From assembly GCA_041482015.1 (NCBI GenBank), contig JBGPCZ010000004.1:13027-77026 (forward strand): 64,000 nucleotides of DNA, read 5' to 3'. The notes under the pieces are model-generated. The model had not been told where the DNA came from. It was given only the letters and a program-made list of their open reading frames with translations, and did no database searches. This DNA comes from Planctomycetota bacterium (GTDB lineage: Bacteria; Planctomycetota; MHYJ01; JACPRB01). The translations under genes were made by a program, and so were the position numbers. Position 1 is the first letter of the stretch, and every line of letters starts with the position of its first letter. This document shows, piece by piece, positions 21,045-52,647 of the stretch.

Positions 21045-22526
21045 TCAGTTCCCCTTGAAGGCCGCCCTTACCCGCTCCGCGTCCGCGCCGGGGAGCCGCC
21101 GCAGGAGCTCCTCGCCCGCCGGCTCCTCCCCGCACGCCAGGTGGTAGAAGGCCGCAAGCGCCATGGCGCCCGGGTCCTCTTTTTTCGCCAGGGCGGCGGC
21201 GAGGTCGCGCCGGTCCCCGAGCTTGAAGTTCGCCCAGAGATAGTCGATCGTGCTTCCGTTGGACTCCAGCTTCATTGCGCCCGCCTCGTCGAGCGACGCG
21301 ATCGCCGCAAGCTGATCGATCAGCTTGAAGTGGAACCGCGCGGGATGTCCCTCGTGGATCTCCTTCCGGACGCGCTCCGCGAGAAGCTCGTCCCACGCGG
21401 CGAGCGCCTTCGGGTCGGCCGCCTTCGCGCGGGGTTTCTCGCCGGTCGCCAGCGCCGGCGCGGCGGGCTTCGGCTCCTCCGCCGGGACGGCCTTCTTCCT
21501 GGGCGGCGGGCGGAACGCGCCGGGCTTCTGCATCATGATGATGCAGGCGAAGACGGCGGTCGAGGCAACGTCGTCCTCGCCGCGGAGCGGCACGACGCCC
21601 TCGGCGGTCTGCGTCTTGATGAGGCGGTCGAGGTGCTCGGCCGTGAACTTCGCATAGACGTCGGGCCCCAGGCGGTGCATCGCCGCGGCCACGCTGAAGT
21701 AGTGGAGCGGCGCGAAGCCGTGGACACCGTCCTCGATCTTCTTGTACCGCTGCTCGATCCCCTTTTCGTACTTCGGAAAGAGCGGATGGCTGGTCTGGCC
21801 GGTCGCGAGGAGCGCCATGAGGACCCACGACGCGCGGGCCATCGCGGCATCGCCCACGCCGTTGTCGGTGCCGTAGCGGACGCCCATGCCGTCGGAGAGC
21901 GTCTCGAGGTTCTTCTGGGCCTTCTCCATCATGGGCCCGATCCTGATCCCGAGGGACTTGAGCTCAAGGAAGGCGCCGTAGATCATCGTGGTGACCATCC
22001 CGAGGTCCTGGCCGCCGCCCTTCTTGTTGTAGTTGTCCTCCTTCCACATCCGGAGGTGGTGGCACCAGCCGCCCGTCTCCTCCTGCTGCTTCTCGGCCAT
22101 CTTGAGCCCTTCCGCGAGCGCCTTTTCGACCTCGGGGGTCAGGCCGTACTTCGTCGCGTATTCCGCGAGGAAGATCATGGACATCGAGAGGTACCAGTTG
22201 CGGTTGAAGCCCTCGTCCTTGATCGCCTGGCAGCAGTACTTGACGCACTCCTCGAGCTCCTTCGGGCTCTCGCCGTCCATCATGAAGGCGAAGCCGCCCA
22301 TCATGTAGCCGCCCATCTTGGAGCCGATGACCCGCTTGGCCTTGTCGCTCCGAAGGTTGGCCTTCAGGTAGGCCATCGCCTTGGCGAGGGCCGGGGCGCA
22401 GATCTTGCACTTGCGCCAATCCGGATTGTGGGCTTCCTGCGCCGCCCGGGATTCCCGGGGGATACTGCCGACCGTCACCGTCGCGGCGAGAACCGCCGCG
22501 CACGCCATCCCGCTCCACCTGGACAC
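21045..22526 (-). CDS. Secreted hypothetical protein, possibly prenyltransferase/squalene-oxidase-like alpha/alpha toroid plus a C-terminal helical domain
   Basis: 493-aa ORF with normal composition. GTG start at 22526 preceded by AGGAGG. Signal peptide. GGW.HH-type repeats. The product name is tentative. Confidence 0.6.
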   Translation of the reverse strand: MSRWSGMACAAVLAATVTVGSIPRESRAAQEAHNPDWRKCKICAPALAKAMAYLKANLRSDKAKRVIGSKMGGYMMGGFAFMMDGESPKELEECVKYCCQAIKDEGFNRNWYLSMSMIFLAEYATKYGLTPEVEKALAEGLKMAEKQQEETGGWCHHLRMWKEDNYNKKGGGQDLGMVTTMIYGAFLELKSLGIRIGPMMEKAQKNLETLSDGMGVRYGTDNGVGDAAMARASWVLMALLATGQTSHPLFPKYEKGIEQRYKKIEDGVHGFAPLHYFSVAAAMHRLGPDVYAKFTAEHLDRLIKTQTAEGVVPLRGEDDVASTAVFACIIMMQKPGAFRPPPRKKAVPAEEPKPAAPALATGEKPRAKAADPKALAAWDELLAERVRKEIHEGHPARFHFKLIDQLAAIASLDEAGAMKLESNGSTIDYLWANFKLGDRRDLAAALAKKEDPGAMALAAFYHLACGEEPAGEELLRRLPGADAERVRAAFKGN

Positions 22527-37737: not shown

Positions 37738-38295
37738 TCACGCTCTCCACTTGATGTTGCAGCCGGCGCTCGGCTTCTGGTAGGCGGGGACGGGCTTGTC
37801 GGCCAGCACGAGGTCGATCGCGGCGCGGAGGTCCTGGCCGGTCACCGGGATGCCGTTGCCGGGGCGGCTGGAGTCGAACTGGCCGCGGTAGACGAGCGTG
37901 CGCGCCGCATCATAGAGAAAGAAGTCGGGCGTGCAGGCCGCCTGGTAGGCGCGCGCGACCGCCTGCGTCTCGTCGTGGAGATACGGGAACCGGTAGTCCT
38001 TCCCTTTCGCCTCGACCGCCATCTTCTCGGGCGAGTCGTCGGGGTAGCCGACGGCGTCGTTGGCGTTGATCGCGACGATCGCGAGGTCCCTCTTCTCGTA
38101 GTCCTTCCCGAGCTGCACCAGGCCGTCCTGCACGTGCTTGACGTACGGGCAGTGGTTGCAGATGAACATCACGAGGAGCCCCTTCTTCGCCTTGACGTCG
38201 GAGAGCGCGACGCGCCGGCCGCTCACCGAATCGGTCAGCGAGAAGTCGGGCGCGGGGGTGCCAAGGGGGTTCATCGCGGACGGGGTGAGTCCCAT
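37738..38295 (-). CDS. Thioredoxin-fold redoxin (AhpC/TSA-like thiol-disulfide oxidoreductase, CNHC motif)
   Basis: APDFSL.D..G..V.L, then LLVMFICNHCPYV. No signal peptide. Confidence 0.75.
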   Translation of the reverse strand: MGLTPSAMNPLGTPAPDFSLTDSVSGRRVALSDVKAKKGLLVMFICNHCPYVKHVQDGLVQLGKDYEKRDLAIVAINANDAVGYPDDSPEKMAVEAKGKDYRFPYLHDETQAVARAYQAACTPDFFLYDAARTLVYRGQFDSSRPGNGIPVTGQDLRAAIDLVLADKPVPAYQKPSAGCNIKWRA

Positions 38296-38630: not shown

Positions 38631-39302
38631 TCACTTGAGCTGGTCGCCGAAGACCTTCTTGAACTTCTCGACCTTCGGGGCGATGACGAGCTGGCAGTAG
38701 CGCTCGTCGGGGTTGAGCTTGAAGTAGTTCTGGTGGTAGTCCTCCGCCTTGAAGAACTTCGTGAACGGGCTGATCTCGGTGACGATCGGCCCGTTGAAAG
38801 CGCCGGCGGCGTCCAGCTCCTTCTTGTACTTCTCCGCGAGCGCCTTCTGCCCGTCGCCGTGATAGAAGACCACCGACCGGTACTGCGTCCCCGAGTCGTG
38901 GCCCTGGCGGTTGAGCGTGGTCGGGTCGTGCGTCTTCCAGAAGACCTCGAGCAGCTTCGCGAAGGAGATCTTGGACGGGTCGTACGTGATATGGCAGACC
39001 TCGGCGTGGCCGGTCTCGCCGCTGCAAACCATCCGGTAGGTCGGGTTCTCCACCTTCCCGCCCGAGTAGCCCGACTCGACCGAGACGACGCCCTTCAGAT
39101 CCTGGAAGACCGCCTCCACGCACCAGAAGCAGCCCTCGCCGAACGTGGCGCGCTCGAGGCCGGAGGGCGCGGGCGCCGGCGGGACGGGTGGCGGGAGCGG
39201 AGGCGGCGCTTTCAGATTCATGGAGGGACCCGGCGGCTCCTGTTTCTTTTCCGCGCACGCGGCCAGGGCGAGAAGGCCGGCGACGATCAGCAGGCGTCTC
39301 AT
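38631..39302 (-). CDS. msrA: Peptide-methionine (S)-S-oxide reductase MsrA, lipoprotein form
   Basis: GCFWC active site, GYSGG and HAEV motifs. Lipobox LLALAAC after start Met19 of the listed ORF. Confidence 0.85.
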   Translation of the reverse strand: MRRLLIVAGLLALAACAEKKQEPPGPSMNLKAPPPLPPPVPPAPAPSGLERATFGEGCFWCVEAVFQDLKGVVSVESGYSGGKVENPTYRMVCSGETGHAEVCHITYDPSKISFAKLLEVFWKTHDPTTLNRQGHDSGTQYRSVVFYHGDGQKALAEKYKKELDAAGAFNGPIVTEISPFTKFFKAEDYHQNYFKLNPDERYCQLVIAPKVEKFKKVFGDQLK

Positions 39303-39388
39303 TCCAGTTCTTATAACACCGGCAGGCCCGCGCCCATTCGAATAAATCGTTTCCATCCCGCGTTCAGAAGCGTAGAGTACCCCTCGCC

Positions 39389-40435
39389 ATGACCTCCTGC
39401 GACATCTGGAGCCAGGCCAAGAGCGGCGGCTGAGCCGCCAAGCTGAGCCCGCAGGTCCTGCGGGAGCTCGTCCAATCGATCTCGCCGAAGGGTCACCCCG
39501 ACCTCCTGGTCGGCCTGAACCCGTCGGACGACGCGGCGGTCTACCGCGTGACCGACGAGATCGCGATGGTCCAGACGGTCGACTTCATCACCCCCATCTA
39601 CCACGACCCTTACCTGTACGGACAGATCGCGGCGGCGAACTCGCTCTCGGACGTCTGGGCGATGGGCGGCCGGCCCGTCACCGCGATGAACATCTGCTGC
39701 TTCCCCGCCAAGGGAGTGGACACGGAGACGCTCGCGAAGATCCTCCAGGGCGGCCTTTCCAAGATCGAGGAAGGGGGCGCGGTGCTCGTCGGCGGCCACT
39801 CCGTCCGCGACGACGAGCTCAAGTACGGCTGCTCGGTCACCGGCTTCATCCACCCGAAGAAGATCGCCCTGAAGGGCGGCGCGAAGGCGGGCGACCGGCT
39901 GATCCTCACCAAGCCCCTCGGGAGCGGCGTCCACGTCACGGGAGCCAAGCGCGGCCTCCTCCCCGACGAGAAACTGCGTCGCGTCATGGAGACGCTCGCC
40001 CAGCTCAACAAGACGGCCGGCGAGACGATGATGGAATTCGAGGTCCGCGGGGCGACCGACATCACGGGCTTCGGCCTGGGCGGCCACGGCCTCGAGATGG
40101 CCCGCATCGCCCGGCTCGGTTTCCGAATCCACGCGGACTCGCTGCCCCTCTTCCCCGACACGATCCCGCTCCTCGAACAGGGCCTGACGACGGGCGCCAC
40201 CCCGGGCAACCTCGCGCTCATCCGGGACGGGATGAAGTACGACGCGGCCGTCACGGTGGCCGAGCAGGGCCTTTTCAGTGATCCGCAGACGTCGGGCGGG
40301 CTCCTGATCGCGATCCGCGCGAAGGATGCGGAGGCCCTTCTCAAGACGCTCCACGAGCGCGGGGTGAAGGACGCGAGGATCATCGGCGAGGCATTCGCCG
40401 CCGACACGCCCCACCTCCACGTGGTGAAAGGATAG
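39389..40435 (+). CDS. selD: Selenide, water dikinase (selenophosphate synthetase), selenocysteine-containing (UGA 39431..39433)
   Basis: One TGA interrupts an otherwise open frame. The read-through N-terminus SGG-U-AAKLSPQVL...DDAAVY matches the SelD glycine-rich loop. The rest is typical SelD (DFITPI..DPY..G.IAAANSLSDVWAMGG, PQTSGGLL). Confidence 0.8.
39445..39469 (+). other. Candidate bacterial SECIS hairpin for selD
   Basis: GAGCCCGCAG-GUC-CUGCGG(GA)GCUC starts 11 nt after the UGA. Its apex GCAGGUCCUGC resembles the E. coli fdhF SECIS apex GCAGGUCUGC. Confidence 0.55.
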
Positions 40436-40440
40436 GACCC

Positions 40441-40923
40441 ATGACGCAAGAATCCTTCTACGCGCTTAAGACGAAGAGCCTGGACGGCAGGGCTTCCGAC
40501 CTCAAGGACTATGCCGGCAAGGTCACGCTCGTCGTCAACGTCGCGAGCGAGTGTGGGTTCACGCCGCAGTACAAGGGCCTCGAGAAGCTCCACGGCGAGC
40601 TCAAGGACCGGGGCTTCGCGGTCCTGGGGTTCCCGAGCAACGACTTCGGCGGGCAGGAACCCGGCACGGCCGAGGAGATCCAGTCCTTCTGCTCCACGAA
40701 GTACCAGGTCACTTTCCCGATGTTCGAGAAGGGGGTGACCAAGGCAGGCGGCGGCCAGTCCGCGGTCTTCGCGAATCTCCAGGCGCAGTCGAAGGAGCTC
40801 CCCGACTGGAACTTCTGCAAGTACCTGGTCGGGAAGGACGGCCAGGTGGTGAAGTTCTTCAGGAGCAAGGTCAAGCCCGACGACCCGGGCCTGCGCAAGG
40901 AAATCGAGGCCGCCCTCGGGTAG
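40441..40923 (+). CDS. Glutathione peroxidase family protein (Cys type)
   Basis: NVASECGFT, LGFPSNDFGGQEPG and WNFCKYLV motifs. Starts 5 nt after the selD stop. Confidence 0.9.
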   Translation: MTQESFYALKTKSLDGRASDLKDYAGKVTLVVNVASECGFTPQYKGLEKLHGELKDRGFAVLGFPSNDFGGQEPGTAEEIQSFCSTKYQVTFPMFEKGVTKAGGGQSAVFANLQAQSKELPDWNFCKYLVGKDGQVVKFFRSKVKPDDPGLRKEIEAALG

Positions 40924-40965
40924 CCGGCGTATACCAGTGATCAGGACACGAAAGGAAGAACCCTT

Positions 40966-41517
40966 ATGAGGACCGCTCTCGCGCTCTGCCTGCTGGCCGC
41001 GACGCAGGCCGTCGACCTCAAGGTGGGCGACGCCGCGCCGAAGTTCGAGTCGACCGACGACGCCGGCAAGGCGTGGAAGTCCGACGAGCACGTCGGGAAG
41101 AAGATCCTGGTCGTCTACTTCTTCCCAGCCGCCTTCACCGGCGGCTGAACCAAGCAGGCCTGCGGGTACCGCGACGACATGAAGTCGTTCGCGGACAAGG
41201 ACGTCGACGTGATCGGCGTCTCGGGCGACACGGTCAAGACGCAGGAGGCGTTCAAGAAATTCCACAAGCTGACCTTCACGCTCCTCGCCGACGAGAAGGG
41301 CGAGGTCGGCAAGGCGTTCGGTGTGCCGGTCAGCAAGGGCGGCACGGCGAAGGCGAAGGTCGACGACAATGACGAGGAGTTCATCCGCGGCGTGACGCTC
41401 AAGCGGTGGACATTCGTCCTGGGCAAGGACGGCAAGGTCGCCTACAAGAACACCGAGATCAAGACGCCGGCCGAGGACAGCAAGGCCGTGCTCGAGGTCA
41501 TCGCGAAGCTCAAATGA
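40966..41517 (+). CDS. bcp: Bcp/PrxQ-type peroxiredoxin with signal peptide, selenocysteine at the peroxidatic position (UGA 41146..41148)
   Basis: Listed ORFs 40966..41148 and 41179..41517 are in the same frame, separated only by a TGA. The joined sequence VVYFFPAAFTGG-U-TKQACGYRDDM aligns with E. coli Bcp VYFYPKAMTPGCTVQACGLRDNM. Confidence 0.8.
41161..41193 (+). other. Candidate SECIS region for the Sec-peroxiredoxin
   Basis: Two overlapping hairpins. UGCGG-GUA-CCGCG has its loop starting 18 nt after the UGA. CGCGACGAC-AUGAA-GUCGU(U)CGCG is a 9-bp stem. The functional one is unresolved. Confidence 0.35.
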
Positions 41518-42566
41518 AGCCGGCGTTGCTCCCACTCCTGGCCCTGGCGCTGGCGTCCTGCGACGGCTCCAGGCCGCCGACGGCGAAGGGCGGCGTTCCG
41601 GCCGAGCTGTGCCCGTGCGGCGCGGACCCCAATCGCGCCCAGATCGTTTCGAAAGAGTTCCTGAAGCCCGGCGACAGCCGCACGTTCTCGATCGAGTACG
41701 TCGGCCGCGTGGCAGAGATCCCCGCGGGAACGAAGAAGGTCCGACTGTGGTTCCCCGTCCCGCAGGACACGAATGTCCAGTCGATCAAGAACTTCACCTT
41801 CTCGAAGCCGCCGAAGCTCGGGAACGAGGCGAAGTACGGGAACAGGATCGCCTATTGGGAGATCGAGAACCCCGCGGGACCGGTCGAGATCACGATGAAG
41901 TTCGACGTCACGCGGATCGAGATCAAGACCGACCTGGCGGCGCTGAAGGACGAGGGACGCGACGAGGTGGGCTCGTTCGACGTCTTCCGCCGGGCCGACC
42001 GCCTCGTCCTCGTGGACAGCGGGACGGGGAAGCTCTCCGATGGCGTCTGCCAGGGGAAGACCTCGACGCTCGACAAGGCGCGGGCGATCTATGACCACGT
42101 GGTCTCGAAGATGACCTACGACAAGAACCACGAGGGCTGGGGGCGGGGCTCGACGAAGCACGCGTGCGAGGTGGGAAAGGGCAACTGCACCGACTTCCAC
42201 GCCCTTTTCAACTCGCTCTGCCGCTCCCAGGCGATCGCGAGCGGATTCGAGATCGGGCTCTACCTCCCTTATGAGCGGAAGTCCGACGAGAAGCCCGGGA
42301 GCTACCACTGCTGGGCGCTCTTCCGCCTGCCCGGGAAGACGTGGGTGCCGGTCGACTGCTCGGAGGCGAGCCGCGCCCCCGCGCGGCGCGACTATTTCTT
42401 CGGGAGCCTGACGTCCAACCGCGTGACGCTCTCCACGGGCCGCGACCTCACGCTGGCGCCCGAGCAGGAGGGTGCGCCCCTCAACTTCTTCCTCGAGCCC
42501 TACGCCGAGGCGGACGGCAGGCCGGTAGTGGCCGCGAAGACCTGGTCGTTCAAGGACCTGGATTGA
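41514..42566 (+). CDS. Transglutaminase-like (Cys-protease fold) lipoprotein
   Basis: Lipobox LALASC. Core GKGNCTDFHALF, then SYHCWA and VPVD (Cys-His-Asp arrangement). ATGA overlap with the peroxiredoxin stop. Confidence 0.7.
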   Translation: MKPALLPLLALALASCDGSRPPTAKGGVPAELCPCGADPNRAQIVSKEFLKPGDSRTFSIEYVGRVAEIPAGTKKVRLWFPVPQDTNVQSIKNFTFSKPPKLGNEAKYGNRIAYWEIENPAGPVEITMKFDVTRIEIKTDLAALKDEGRDEVGSFDVFRRADRLVLVDSGTGKLSDGVCQGKTSTLDKARAIYDHVVSKMTYDKNHEGWGRGSTKHACEVGKGNCTDFHALFNSLCRSQAIASGFEIGLYLPYERKSDEKPGSYHCWALFRLPGKTWVPVDCSEASRAPARRDYFFGSLTSNRVTLSTGRDLTLAPEQEGAPLNFFLEPYAEADGRPVVAAKTWSFKDLD

Positions 42567-45974: not shown

Positions 45975-46138
45975 GACCAGTTCCTCCCTACGGTTACGTG
46001 GAGATCCGCTCTCAAGAGTGGACCCGGAGGGTATCAGTCCCCGGTCCCGGGTGTCAAGAAAAGCGGCCCACCCCCGAATTGTTAAGAGGGGTCCTTTTCA
46101 CTTACCCCCGTCTTCGCTTTCGGGTAAGGTTATTGTCC

Positions 46139-49100
46139 ATGGGCGTCAGCCGCCGGGATTTCCTTAAGCTCTCCGCGGCGGGCGCGTTCGTCACGCCCTT
46201 CGGGTTCGATCTCACCCCCGCCCTCGCCGAGGCGAAGAAGTTCAAGATCGCCCGCACCACCGAGACCCGCTCGATCTGCCCCTACTGCTCCGTCTCGTGC
46301 GGCGTCATCGTCCACACGCGGGGCGAGGGAAAGAACACCCAGCGGCAGATCGTCCACATCGAGGGCGACCCGGATCACCCCGTCAACCTGGGCACGCTCT
46401 GCCCCAAGGGCGCCACGCTCAAGCACTACGTCGACAACGACCGGCGCCTCGACCGCGTGCGCCACCGCGCCCCCGGCGCGAGCGACTGGACCTTCATCTC
46501 GTGGGACAAGGCGATCGACATGATCGCCCAGCGGATCAAGAAGACCCGCGACGCGGACTTCATCGCGAAAGACAGGGACGGCCGCACCGTCAACCGCCTC
46601 GACTCGATCGCCGCCATCGGCGGCTGCACCGACACGAACGAGTTCAACTGGCTCTTCCAGAAAGTCGCGCGGGCCTGGAGCATCGCCCACCTGGAGCAGC
46701 AGTCGCGGATATGACACGGTCCCACGGTGGCCAGTCTGGCCCCCACCTTCGGACGCGGCTCGATGACGAACGGATGGACCGACATCCGGAACACCGATGT
46801 CGTCCTCTGCATGGGCGGCAACCCCGCCGAGAATCACCCGTGCGGGTTCAAATGGGCGATCGAGGCCAAGAAGAAGCGGGGCGCGAAGATCGTCTGCATC
46901 GACCCGCGCTACAACCGCACGGCCGCCGTCTCGGACTGCTTCGTCCAGATCCGCTCGGGGAGCGACATCGCGTTCCTGGGCGGACTCATCCGCCAGGCGA
47001 TCGAGGACAAGCTCTTTCACGAGGAGTACGTCAAGCTCCACACGAACGCTCTCTTCCTCCTGGAGCCCGGGTCGGAGCTCGGGACCGACGGGCTCTTCGG
47101 TGGATTCGATTCCGAGGCGAAGAAGTACGACAAGTCGAAATGGAAATACCAGCTCGATGAAAAGGGGCTCGCGAAGCGGACGGCCTCGCTCGACGATCCC
47201 GCCTGCGTCTTCCAGCACCTGAAGCGCCACTACTCCCGCTACACGCCGGAGGTCGTCGCCGATATCGCCGGCTGCACGAAGGAGGATTTCCTCAAGGCCG
47301 CGGCGATCATCAACTCGACCGGCACGGCCAGCCGAGCGGGGACGATCATGTACGCGCTCGGCTGGACGCAGCACTCCACGAGCGTCCAGATCATCCGCGC
47401 CGCGGCGATCCTCCAGCTCCTCCTCGGCAACATCGGCCGCGCGGGCGGCGGCGTGAACGCGCTCCGCGGCCACGCGAACATCCAGGGGGGCACCGACCAC
47501 GGGGTCGCGTACCACGCGCTCCCGGGCTACATGGCGATCCCGCGGGCCACCGACCTGGACGTCGCGACGTACCTCAAGCGGATCACGCCGGAGTCGCTCT
47601 CGGCCACGTCGATGAATTACTGGGCCAACGCGCCGAAGTTCTTCGTCTCGCTCATGAAGTCGATGTACGGCGGCGCCGCCACCGAGAAGAACGAGTGGGG
47701 CTTCCACTGGCTCCCCAAGATCGATCCCGCCGTGAACTACTCGTGGGTCTACATCTTCGACAAGATGTACAAGGGCGAGATCAAGGGGTTCATCGACTTC
47801 GGCATGAACCCCGTCGCGAACGGCCCCAACACCGAGAAGATCATCGCCGCGCTTTCGAAGCTCGACTGGATGGTGATCGCGGAGGCGTTCGAGACGGAGA
47901 CCGCCTCCTTCTGGACCGTCGCCAAGGAGTCCCCGAAGACGGAAGTCTTCATGCTCCCGGCCGCGATCTTCGCCGAGAAGGACGGCTCGTTCACCAACTC
48001 GTCGCGCTGGGCGCAGTGGAAGCACAAGGCGACGGAGCCCCCCGGCGAGGCGAGGACCGACCAGGAGATCCTCGCGCGGATCTTCGTCCGGGTCCGCGAG
48101 CTCTACGAGAAGGAGAGCGGGGCGTTCCCCGACGCGATCCGCGCGCTCGACTGGTCGTACAAGAACCCCTACGCCCCGTCGCTCGAGGAGATCGCGAAGG
48201 AGATCAACGGCCGGGATCTCGCGACCGGGAAGCAGCTCAACGCGTTCAGCGAACTCAAGGCCGACGGCACGACCGCGAGCGGCAACTGGCTCTACTGCGG
48301 GAGCTTCACCGAGGCCGGCAACATGATGGCCCGGCGCGACCCGCGCGACCCGTCGGGCCTCGGACGGCACGAGAACTGGGCATGGAACTGGCCGATGAAC
48401 CGTCGCGTCCTCTACAACCGGGCGGGCGCGGACGCCCAGGGAAAACCCTGGGACCCGACGCGATCGGGCATCACGTGGGACGGGTCGAAGTGGATCGGCG
48501 ACGTGCCCGACCTCAAGGCGGACAGCAAGCCCGAGGACGGGCTCGGCGCGTTCATCATGCTTCCCGAGGGCGTGGCCAAGCTATGGGCCCCGGACTTTGC
48601 CGACGGCCCCTTCCCCGAGCACTACGAGCCGATGGAGCACCCGACCGAGGAGAACCCACTCCACAAGCAGACGACGAGCCCCGTCGCGCCCGTCTTCAAG
48701 AGCGACATGGACCGGCTCGGAACCCCCAAGGAGGGCTACGACATCGTCGCGACGACCTTCCGGCTCACCGAGCACTTCCACTACTGGACGAAGCACGTGG
48801 CGCCGGCCGCGATGCTGCAGTCGGAGTTCTTCGTGGAGATCCCCGAGGGCCTGGCCCTGGAGAGAGGGATCCAGAACGAGAACCGCGTGCGCCTCTCGAC
48901 GCCGCGGGGGTCCATCGAAGGGCGCGCGCTCGTGACGAAGCGCATCCACGGAATGAAGGTCGCCGGGAAGACCGTGTGGCAGGTCGCGATCCCGATCCAC
49001 TGGGGCTTCCAGGGGCGGACCGAGAAGGGGAACGCCGCGGTCAAGGGCGGCCGCGGCCCCATGGCAAACCTGCTGACGGCGAGCGTCGTCGACCCGAACT

Positions 49101-49156
49101 CGTTCACGCCCGAGTACAAGACCTTCCTCGTGAAACTGGAGAAGGTCTCGTCATGA
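46139..49156 (+). CDS. fdnG: Formate dehydrogenase-N/O type alpha subunit, TAT-exported, selenocysteine-containing (UGA 46712..46714)
   Basis: RRDFLK signal and CPYCSVSCG Fe-S motif. ...QSRI-U-HGPTVASLAPTFGRG matches E. coli FdnG ...ARV-U-HGPTVASLAPTFGRG. Listed ORFs 45998..46714 and 46727..49156 share the frame. Confidence 0.9.
46726..46747 (+). other. Candidate SECIS hairpin for fdnG
   Basis: GGUGGCCA-GUC-UGGCC(CCC)ACC starts 11 nt after the UGA. UGACACGG... and the GUC-containing apex parallel the E. coli fdhF element. Confidence 0.6.
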
Positions 49157-52131: not shown

Positions 52132-52647
52132 ATGAAGCTTCTCCACTCCCTCTTCCTCTCTCTCTTTCTGGCCCTTCCCGGCCTGCCCGCCGCCGCCCAG
52201 GAATCGAAAACCGCGCGGGAGCAGCTCAAGGAATCCCTCGCAAAGGCGAAGGAGGGAAAGAAGCGCGTCCTCCTCACCTTCGGCGGGGCCGGCTGAAGCT
52301 GGTGCAAGATCTTCGAGGCCTGGAAGGCCCGGGAGGAGGTCGCCCCGATCCTCGCAAAGGACATCGTCAACCTCTACATCGACACGTCCAAGGTCGCCGG
52401 CGGGAAGGACCTTCACGCGTCCTATCCGAAGAGCCAGAAGGGCGGCATCCCCTGGTTCGTCATCCTCGACGGCGAGGGCAAGGAGCTCGGGGATTCGAAC
52501 GGCCCGAACGGAAACATCGGATGCCCCGACACCGACGAGGAGATCGCGGCGTTCATCGACCTTTTGAAGAAGGTCCGCCTCTCAATGACCGACGACGACC
52601 TTGCTGCGCTCAAAAAGTCGCTGGTGGCCCGCCGGGAGAAGAAATGA
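52132..52647 (+). CDS. Secreted thioredoxin-fold selenoprotein with U-x-x-C redox motif (UGA 52294..52296); absent from the ORF track
   Basis: ATG 52132 to TGA 52645 is open except for one TGA. Signal peptide MKLLHSLFLSLFLALPGLPAAAQ. RVLLTFGGAG-U-SWCK occupies the position of the Trx C-x-x-C (WC..CK). GIPWFVILDGEGKEL is typical of the Thioredoxin_7-like fold. GC3-rich codon usage continues across the TGA. Confidence 0.7.

Follow-up and report, generated by a model that had tools for sequence, protein, structure and literature searches.

The prxQ locus and its in-frame TGA codon

We analyzed a stretch of 64,000 nucleotides (hereafter, the window) from the assembly GCA_041482015.1 of a Planctomycetota bacterium, in which a gene for a Bcp/PrxQ-type peroxiredoxin (Prx), designated prxQ(U), is interrupted by one in-frame TGA codon. 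An earlier interpretation of this DNA, made from the letters and a list of open reading frames (ORFs) and called here the sequence-only reading, had proposed that two adjacent ORFs are the halves of an exported Prx with selenocysteine (Sec) in place of the peroxidatic Cys. The window sequence and the ORF list confirmed that positions 40966..41517 of the plus strand form a single frame, in which the TGA at 41146-41148 is the sole interruption, and that the two ORFs, one of 60 aa at 40966..41148 and one of 112 aa at 41179..41517, share this frame. The read-through peptide around the TGA is ...VVYFFPAAFTGG-*-TKQACGYRDDM..., and a longer part of it reads ...KKILVVYFFPAAFTGG-*-TKQACGYRDDMKSF... It had also been expected that standard annotation would give two fragments, and the public collection that was searched indeed stores the gene as pieces of 60 aa and 112 aa, each named 'peroxiredoxin Q/BCP'. 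From the evidence described below, it is very probable that 40966..41517 is a genuine selenoprotein gene that has been mis-annotated. Its features are as follows.

40952..40958, plus strand: Shine-Dalgarno-like AAGGAAG, 7 nt before the ATG at 40966, read from the sequence
40966..41517, plus strand: prxQ(U), 183 codons, gene for a BCP/PrxQ-type peroxiredoxin with predicted export; single frame, AhpC-TSA domain across the TGA, Bcp/PrxQ matches in the PDB
40966..41010, plus strand: predicted signal peptide (MRTALALCLLAATQA|VD), with an Arg in the n-region, a hydrophobic core of ~10 residues and small residues ahead of the mature domain; heuristic
41125..41148, plus strand: active-site motif P54-AAF-T58-GG-U61 (PxxxTxxU), placed by its coordinates
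41146..41148, plus strand: TGA, very probably selenocysteine 61, the peroxidatic residue; Cys in close orthologues, TGA in 113 genes and in independent assemblies
41161..41163, plus strand: TGC, resolving Cys66 (peroxidatic position +5)
41161..41173, plus strand: hairpin A, UGCGG-GUA-CCGCG, with the GUA triloop at +21..+23 from the U of the UGA; a pattern common to four Sec sites
41169..41194, plus strand: hairpin B, CCGCGACGAC-AUGAA-GUCG(U)UCGCGG, a stem-loop specific to the Sec-forms and the best candidate for the Sec insertion sequence (SECIS); minimum free energy structure from RNAfold
41404..41406, plus strand: CGG, conserved catalytic Arg147 (RWTF)
41515-41517, plus strand: TGA, the terminator of prxQ itself

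The joined protein belongs to the Bcp/PrxQ family

Profile and PDB searches were performed with the joined 183-aa protein, in which U was written as C. The Pfam AhpC-TSA domain matched residues 20-160 with E=1e-30 and was covered from profile position 1 to 123 (of 124); the E value for Redoxin was 2.5e-22. Because the AhpC-TSA match runs across the TGA, each ORF fragment holds just a part of the domain, as expected from the claim that neither half is a complete fold. The top NCBIfam match was the Bcp model PRK09437 (2e-29), whose equivalog cut-off was not reached (102.5 bits vs 140), and the PrxU model NF040737 matched weakly (34.8 bits vs a cut-off of 270). By these scores, the protein is classified as a member of the BCP/PrxQ subfamily and not as an equivalog of E. 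coli Bcp. All sequence matches in the PDB were Bcp/PrxQ proteins, i.e., 2ywn (3e-20), 3drn, 5epf, 3hjp, 2cx3 and 2a4v. P54, T58 and U61 aligned with the active-site region of 2ywn (...PAAFT-x2-CTK...) and R147 with its Arg-containing strand, and 3drn and 5epf also aligned over the active-site region.

In an alignment of 45 homologues, column 61 was an invariant Cys, P54, T58 and R147 were likewise invariant, and C66 was nearly invariant (>90% conserved). The TGA thus aligns exactly with the peroxidatic Cys, and the resolving Cys is found five residues later, both as had been proposed; this spacing is that of the Bcp-type atypical 2-Cys Prx. As a stand-in for the window protein, the AlphaFold model of P0001, the closest Cys orthologue (syntenic, with 78% identity), was compared with known structures. 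This model (predicted local distance difference test score, pLDDT, 90.3) had its best PDB fold matches among Bcp/PrxQ proteins, with template modeling (TM) scores of 0.82-0.88, and the family assignment of the sequence-only reading was supported by profile and structure alike.

Two further observations concern the architecture of the family. An insertion of ~12 residues relative to the solved Bcp structures lies at prxQ residues ~122-145 (window ~41329..41400; ...KGGTAKAKVDDNDEEFIRG...). This insertion, which is specific to the prxQ clade, folds into an additional beta-hairpin in the P0001 model (strands 124-134 and 137-147). The longer homologues P0002 (287 aa) and P0014 (298 aa) carry additional AhpC/TSA_2 (PF13911) or DUF899 (PF05988) annotations, and possibly represent fusions or tandem Prx domains.

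Cys homologues and recurrence of the TGA

The protein search gave 2522 homologues in total. The best 120 of these were full-length (~184 aa), mostly from Planctomycetota and up to ~77-78% identical, and every one of them (120/120) has Cys at column 61, so that the predicted Cys-containing orthologues exist. At the DNA level, all ten close genome orthologues (10/10) carry TGC or TGT in this column. At least three independent assemblies besides that of the window have the same TGA: GCA_041488475.1, JGI 3300052990 and Logan SRR29604914 hold the same 60-aa and 112-aa split fragments with the same neighbors, by which a sequencing error was ruled out.

To find further TGA-forms, metagenomic DNA was searched with a DNA pattern specific for F-T-x-G-TGA-T-K-Q-A-C. 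It matched 113 stretches, most of them marine, far more than chance would give. All were PrxQ-type ORFs whose frame continues beyond the TGA as far as a normal C-terminus, and ~15 of them are full-length orthologues with 56-80% identity to the window gene. No second stop or frameshift was found in the 113 TGA-carrying genes, and no decayed orthologue was seen; such decay had been named beforehand as a result that would speak against Sec. Downstream of the TGA, the proportion of nonsynonymous differences between the window gene and close Sec-forms (pN, 0.14-0.21) was lower than that of synonymous ones (pS, 0.34-0.42), dN/dS was ~0.33-0.5 for close pairs, and there was at most one gap. The low pN relative to pS and the near-absence of indels indicate purifying selection rather than decay. 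In a region of another phylum (L013:3106, Dehalococcoidia metagenome-assembled genome JAPYRK010000016.1), a Bcp homologue that lacks a signal peptide carries a TGA at the peroxidatic column (FYPKDFTPG-U-TTEACALRD), and its sequence identifies it as a putative independent Sec-Bcp.

In a neighbor-joining tree built from 12 Sec-forms together with 97 Cys-forms, the former fell into six separate groups. Fitch parsimony required 6 changes from a Cys root, and the nearest relatives of the window gene on the tree were Cys-forms.

Other candidate selenoprotein genes in the window

Three more genes of the window have an in-frame TGA at a probable Sec position.

39389..40435, plus strand: selD, selenophosphate synthetase, itself Sec-containing, two genes upstream of prxQ (TIGR00476, 1.3e-104)
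45977..49156, plus strand: fdhA, formate dehydrogenase alpha subunit, with Sec at TGA 46712-46714 (...EQQSRI-U-HGPTVASL...), from translation
52132..52647, plus strand: signal-bearing Thioredoxin_7/DsbH-like protein with a U-S-W-C motif at TGA 52294-52296 (Pfam Thioredoxin_7, 1e-7, across the TGA)

The in-frame TGA of selD is at 39431-39433 (...AKSGG-U-AAKLSPQ...) and is followed by a 7-bp stem with a GUC triloop at +19..+33. Gene callers start selD too far downstream, and leave fragments of 289-295 aa. The fdhA gene contains the sole curated SECIS match of the window, Rfam SECIS_3 at 46709-46767 (67.2 bits, over the gathering score). The Thioredoxin_7-like gene (...VLLTFGGAG-U-SWCKIFE...) has a 5-bp stem with a GGA triloop at +24..+36, and is likely the fourth selenoprotein of the window. 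Judged from sequence, there are at least four selenoprotein candidates within 64 kb. A Sec-type selD together with an fdhA that bears SECIS_3 implies a Sec-decoding trait for the host, whose absence would have contradicted the sequence-only reading. The gene content of the window, including PSCyt1/PSCyt2/PSD1, DUF1501 and sulfatase genes, is planctomycete-type.

The ordinary use of TGA in this DNA was also examined. It is the commonest stop in the window and ends 19 of the 30 Pfam-supported genes, prxQ included; since TGA is a normal terminator here, the internal UGA needs site-specific recoding and does not reflect a reassigned code. One more TGA, at 21045-21047, joins ORFs of 497 aa and 350 aa; it was rejected as a mere gene boundary, with ADH domains beginning directly after it.

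RNA structure downstream of the TGA

At each of the four Sec sites in the window, a stem of 5 bp or more carries a triloop that starts with G and lies 21-29 nt from the U of the UGA. The triloops are GUC in selD, GUC in fdhA, GUA in prxQ and GGA in the Trx-like gene, and the fdhA hairpin sits within the SECIS_3 match. Such a feature was present at just 2.6% of the 1311 TGAs in the window. In prxQ, it corresponds to hairpin A (+16..+28), which overlaps hairpin B, so that the two are mutually exclusive. Hairpin A was rejected as Sec-specific evidence, because the Cys-forms have it too (-4.7 vs -4.1 kcal/mol, p=0.18); it is considered a possible contributor.

On the other hand, the zone from +20 to +56 clearly distinguished the two forms. 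The folding energies were -10.0 to -20.9 kcal/mol in 16 Sec-forms and -3.2 to -9.5 kcal/mol in 13 Cys-forms, wholly separate (Mann-Whitney p=2.8e-6), and the separation extended to high-GC Cys-forms with nearly identical peptides. In the window, the stem of hairpin B is completed by TTC-GCG-GAC, at a place where the Cys-forms of loci L137 and L138 read TTC-ACC-GAC. Compared with synonymous-codon shuffles, the mean z was -1.08 for the Sec-forms and 0.02 for the Cys-forms (p=0.006), and the same test over 82 unique Sec-forms gave a mean z of -0.48 (p=1.4e-5). In the RNAalifold consensus of 10 close Sec-forms, the stem columns 24-29/44-49 were kept. A SECIS-competent structure specific to the Sec-forms is therefore present downstream of the TGA; its absence would have spoken against the sequence-only reading. 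The SECIS is most likely hairpin B (41169..41194), which lies in the region 41149-41200 where the sequence-only reading had suggested to look, or possibly hairpin A (41161..41173).

The AT-rich marine Sec-forms retain just a short hairpin with a GUU loop. As a separate observation, the conserved C-G-F-R codons (UGC GGN UUC CGN) impose a 5-bp hairpin with its triloop 21-23 nt past the catalytic codon in Cys-forms too, and these codons dictate the occurrence of hairpin A there (loci L003-L006, L008, L010 and L136-L138). The C-G-F-R hairpin may be a pre-adaptation that eases Cys-to-Sec conversion in the PrxQ family.

The N-terminal extension

The PDB alignments begin at query residues 18-19, which correspond to chain residues 2-5, and thus the window protein has a hydrophobic extension of 17 residues relative to cytoplasmic Bcp. 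The presequence pattern is Met, a basic residue, ~10 hydrophobic residues and a polar stretch, followed by LKVGDAAP. An equivalent hydrophobic presequence was present in 97/98 Cys homologues and also in Sec-forms, in line with the signal-like N-terminus described before, and residues 1-16 were the sole disordered part of the P0001 model. A hydrophobic N-terminal extension was found in 64/83 unique metagenomic Sec-forms, from which it follows that exported or anchored Sec-PrxQ is common. The lipoprotein signals of two neighboring products, MsrA (LALAAC) and the transglutaminase-core protein (LALASC), suggest an envelope-directed cluster. We infer from these sequence features that the prxQ(U) product is exported.

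Proposed mechanism and alternative explanations

We conclude with high confidence, short of certainty, that 40966..41517 encodes one signal-peptide-bearing BCP/PrxQ-type atypical 2-Cys Prx of 183 residues with the peroxidatic residue U61, whose UGA codon would be recoded by the Sec system. In the proposed mechanism, the UGA at 41146 would be recoded co-translationally by SelB and Sec-tRNA-Sec, as directed by the downstream mRNA stem-loop, most likely hairpin B or else the overlapping hairpin A. The precursor would leave the cytoplasm through the Sec translocon, and the signal peptide would then be cleaved. By analogy with the family, the U61 selenolate would reduce H2O2 or organic hydroperoxides and become a selenenic acid, which Cys66 would resolve to an intramolecular selenenylsulfide. 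This bond might be reduced by an envelope thioredoxin-fold reductase (TlpA-like or Thioredoxin_7-like) that receives its electrons from a transporter in the membrane, as modeled on Caulobacter PprX. The Thioredoxin_7-like UxxC protein of the window may be such an envelope reductant.

Several observations weigh against this interpretation. Among the 17 consensus pairs in the alignment of the 10 close Sec-forms, no compensatory change was found (0/17), because the Sec-form sequences are too similar, and more distant Sec-forms place their hairpins at other positions. The loop of hairpin B (+34..+38) is farther from the UGA than the loops of selD and fdhA (+23..+27); hairpin A is closer to the selD/fdhA pattern and is shared with the Cys-forms, which makes the SelB-binding hairpin ambiguous. 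No Rfam SECIS family was found near the prxQ TGA (39300-41600) even at E<=10, chance matches having E>3. Rfam also missed the SECIS of selD and is therefore insensitive here. Bacterial SECIS elements are poorly captured by family models, and the missing match is accordingly weak negative evidence. Genes for selA, selB and tRNA-Sec were not found within the 64-kb window, the dN/dS of 0.3-0.5 is moderate, and cleavage of the signal peptide is inferred from heuristics only.

The gene could instead be a pseudogene, in which a nonsense mutation changed the TGC or TGT of a Cys-type prxQ to TGA and left the two fragments as remnants. A single base change from TGC would suffice, all of the best full-length homologues and close genome orthologues have Cys, the nearest relatives on the tree are Cys-forms, and the Rfam match is missing. 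However, the identical TGA recurs in at least three other assemblies, 113 independent genes have it at the exact codon without a second stop or frameshift, and pN is well under pS downstream of it. The Sec-form-specific hairpin, the linkage to a Sec-type selD and the ATGA overlap with the next gene, by which the operon architecture is intact, also argue against decay, and we consider this explanation very improbable. Still a little less probable is that the UGA is decoded otherwise than as Sec, by near-cognate read-through with Trp or Cys or by a reassigned code, to give a protein without selenium. Low-level UGA read-through does occur in bacteria, and selA, selB and selC were not seen within the 64-kb window. 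Against this, TGA terminates most of the well-supported genes (19/30) including prxQ, which indicates the standard code, and Trp at the peroxidatic position would abolish catalysis; the host has a Sec-type selD and an fdhA with a curated SECIS match, and a Sec-specific RNA structure has been selected downstream of the TGA.

A different alternative accepts the Sec-PrxQ and denies its release to the periplasm: the N-terminus would be an uncleaved membrane anchor, or an internal start would give a cytoplasmic protein. The c-region T-Q-A of the window protein departs from the textbook AxA, the hydrophobic N-termini of many marine Sec-forms are longer and could serve as anchors, and the signal peptide of the window protein was judged by heuristics. 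The hydrophobic core, however, has only ~10 residues, fewer than a transmembrane helix needs. No alternative in-frame start lies ahead of the mature domain, the next Met being M72, and a good Shine-Dalgarno sequence precedes the ATG at 40966. The presequence is kept in 97/98 homologues, and the neighboring MsrA and transglutaminase-like proteins also bear export signals. We thus regard this alternative as unlikely, though less remote than the two above, and prefer the exported selenoperoxidase.

Gene neighborhood

The genes around selD and prxQ(U) are as follows.

37738..38295, minus strand: AhpC/TSA-Redoxin protein, cytoplasmic-looking, with a CNHC motif (from sequence)
38631..39356, minus strand: MsrA with the lipoprotein signal LALAAC and a GCFWC active site, divergent from selD (sequence, PF01625, synteny)
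40441..40923, plus strand: glutathione peroxidase homologue (gpx), Cys form, between selD and prxQ (GSHPx, 2.6e-34)
41514..42566, plus strand: transglutaminase-core lipoprotein with the lipobox LALASC (Transglut_core, 1e-20; synteny)

The ATG of the transglutaminase gene overlaps the prxQ stop (ATGA), and the arrangement of the two genes suggests that they are probably co-transcribed and translationally coupled. Among the Sec-form loci with enough flanking sequence, selD is adjacent or nearby in L031, L111, L079, L020 and L108. L031 repeats the whole arrangement (MsrA / selD-gpx-prxQ-transglut / sulfite-oxidase-like), and the locus of P0001, a Cys-form, shares the prxQ-transglut pair with it. 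Linkage to selD, which is divergent there, likewise occurs in the closest Cys-forms, L136-L138, whereas distant Planctomycetaceae Cys-forms are without the link. From the link in L136-L138, the selD-prxQ linkage predates the Sec state of prxQ or is independent of it. MsrA and the CNHC AhpC/TSA-Redoxin gene are both kept upstream of selD in L031, L133 and L134. In L136, the gene after the Cys orthologue is TlpA-like, and Thioredoxin_7-like genes, distant homologues of 52132..52647, lie ~2.3 kb from the Cys-type prxQ in L005 and L006.

A more speculative idea, which we think has a small chance of being correct, is that the selD-linked cluster (lipoprotein MsrA, selD(U), gpx, exported prxQ(U) and the transglutaminase-core lipoprotein) is a dedicated selenium-dependent antioxidant or selenium-handling module of the planctomycete envelope, with the C-G-F-R hairpin acting as a 'pre-SECIS' that eases toggling between Cys and Sec. 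If the module exists, the transglutaminase-like protein would have a specific role tied to the selenoenzyme or to selenium supply. If the pre-SECIS is real, the mutation of TGC to TGA would by itself yield a partly decodable codon, and the second, stabilizing hairpin would evolve later; the ~6 Cys/Sec switches in the PrxQ clade would then have been made easy by the G-U-N triloop of the Cys-forms.

Comparison with known systems

Sec-containing members of the Prx family were reportedly described earlier, by Kryukov and Gladyshev in 2004. In the Sargasso Sea, the TxxU Sec-peroxiredoxins (COG1225/PF00578) numbered 43 genes and ranked second in abundance among the known selenoprotein families (Zhang, Fomenko & Gladyshev 2005, PMC1088965). 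The GOS data set held 253 Sec-Prx sequences (2008, PMC2398784), 91 Sec-Prx proteins in 78 genomes were known by 2016 (PMC5029168), and the family is included in a 2026 review (PMC13188914). Five Cys-to-Sec conversions were inferred for it (Zhang et al. 2006, PMC1794560), comparable with the ~6 switches in the clade of the window gene. Our protein shares with the TxxU Prx the AhpC/TSA fold, a PxxxTxxU motif with a predicted Sec as peroxidatic residue, widespread Cys homologues, a stem-loop after the UGA, repeated Cys-to-Sec conversion and marine abundance, and nothing essential differs. The planctomycete clade, the signal peptide and the selD linkage of the window gene are not discussed in the TxxU Prx papers from 2005 onward that are cited here.

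A case from the same phylum is the planctomycete P1 from Porphyra, for which TGA-split 'peroxiredoxin' and 'AhpC/TSA' selenoprotein candidates with 'SECIS present' were listed (Kim et al. 2016, PMC4807772, S9 Table). They resemble the window gene in the split gene pair and in having a Cys homologue in other planctomycetes; this likeness is by description, the table giving IMG gene ids only. In the same study, a transglut_core gene inside a planctomycete selB-x-selA-selD operon was associated with Sec genes (PMC4807772). Such a gene also follows prxQ in the window.

For export, the closest likeness is PprX of Caulobacter crescentus, a PrxQ that resides in the cell envelope, where TlpA and ScsB reduce it (Cho et al. 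2012, PMC3322552). Both proteins belong to the BCP/PrxQ subfamily and have an N-terminal signal sequence (~20 residues in PprX, predicted in the window protein) and a PxxxTxxC-type motif plus Arg. PprX is Cys-based with its resolving Cys elsewhere (PMC3322552), whereas the window protein has a predicted Sec with the resolving Cys at the peroxidatic position +5. By this analogy, PprX is likely a model for the re-reduction of an exported PrxQ; no ScsB or TlpA partner of prxQ was identified within the window. E. coli Bcp (PRK09437), a thioredoxin-dependent thiol peroxidase, has the same fold and the same C-x4-C spacing of peroxidatic and resolving Cys. It differs in being cytoplasmic and Cys-based, whereas the window protein has the predicted signal peptide and the insertion described above. 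PrxU belongs to an anaerobic Firmicute and is located in the cytoplasm. It comes from Eubacterium acidaminophilum and, as quoted in the review PMC13188914, is an experimentally shown Sec-peroxiredoxin with Sec at the peroxidatic site (Sohling et al. 2001). The window protein resembles it in the position of the predicted Sec and belongs to another Prx subfamily by the NF040737 score.

Significance

Each element of the sequence-only reading that could be checked held up, and the significance that it had attached to this gene was overstated. TxxU Sec-Prx have long been known (PMC1088965, PMC1794560, PMC2398784, PMC5029168, PMC13188914), and enzymes of the prxQ(U) kind have been known in bacteria for ~20 years and catalogued since 2004-2005. 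Sec-Prx, planctomycete selenoproteins (PMC4807772) and an exported PrxQ (PprX, PMC3322552) have each been described already, and no concept is altered. Mildly new are the combination of Sec with a predicted exported location, the linkage with selD, MsrA and the transglutaminase gene, and the possible C-G-F-R 'pre-SECIS'.

The practical value of the finding is a correction of annotation, and at least 113 metagenomic relatives with an internal TGA risk the same split. Joining the fragments would restore a functional antioxidant enzyme, as predicted from its sequence, and adds to the selenoproteins counted for this planctomycete. The gene is also a clean example of a putative envelope-targeted selenoperoxidase, with repeated interchange of Cys and Sec in one orthologous clade. 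The PrxQ clade could therefore be a natural system for asking what benefit Sec brings to a peroxiredoxin outside the cytoplasm.

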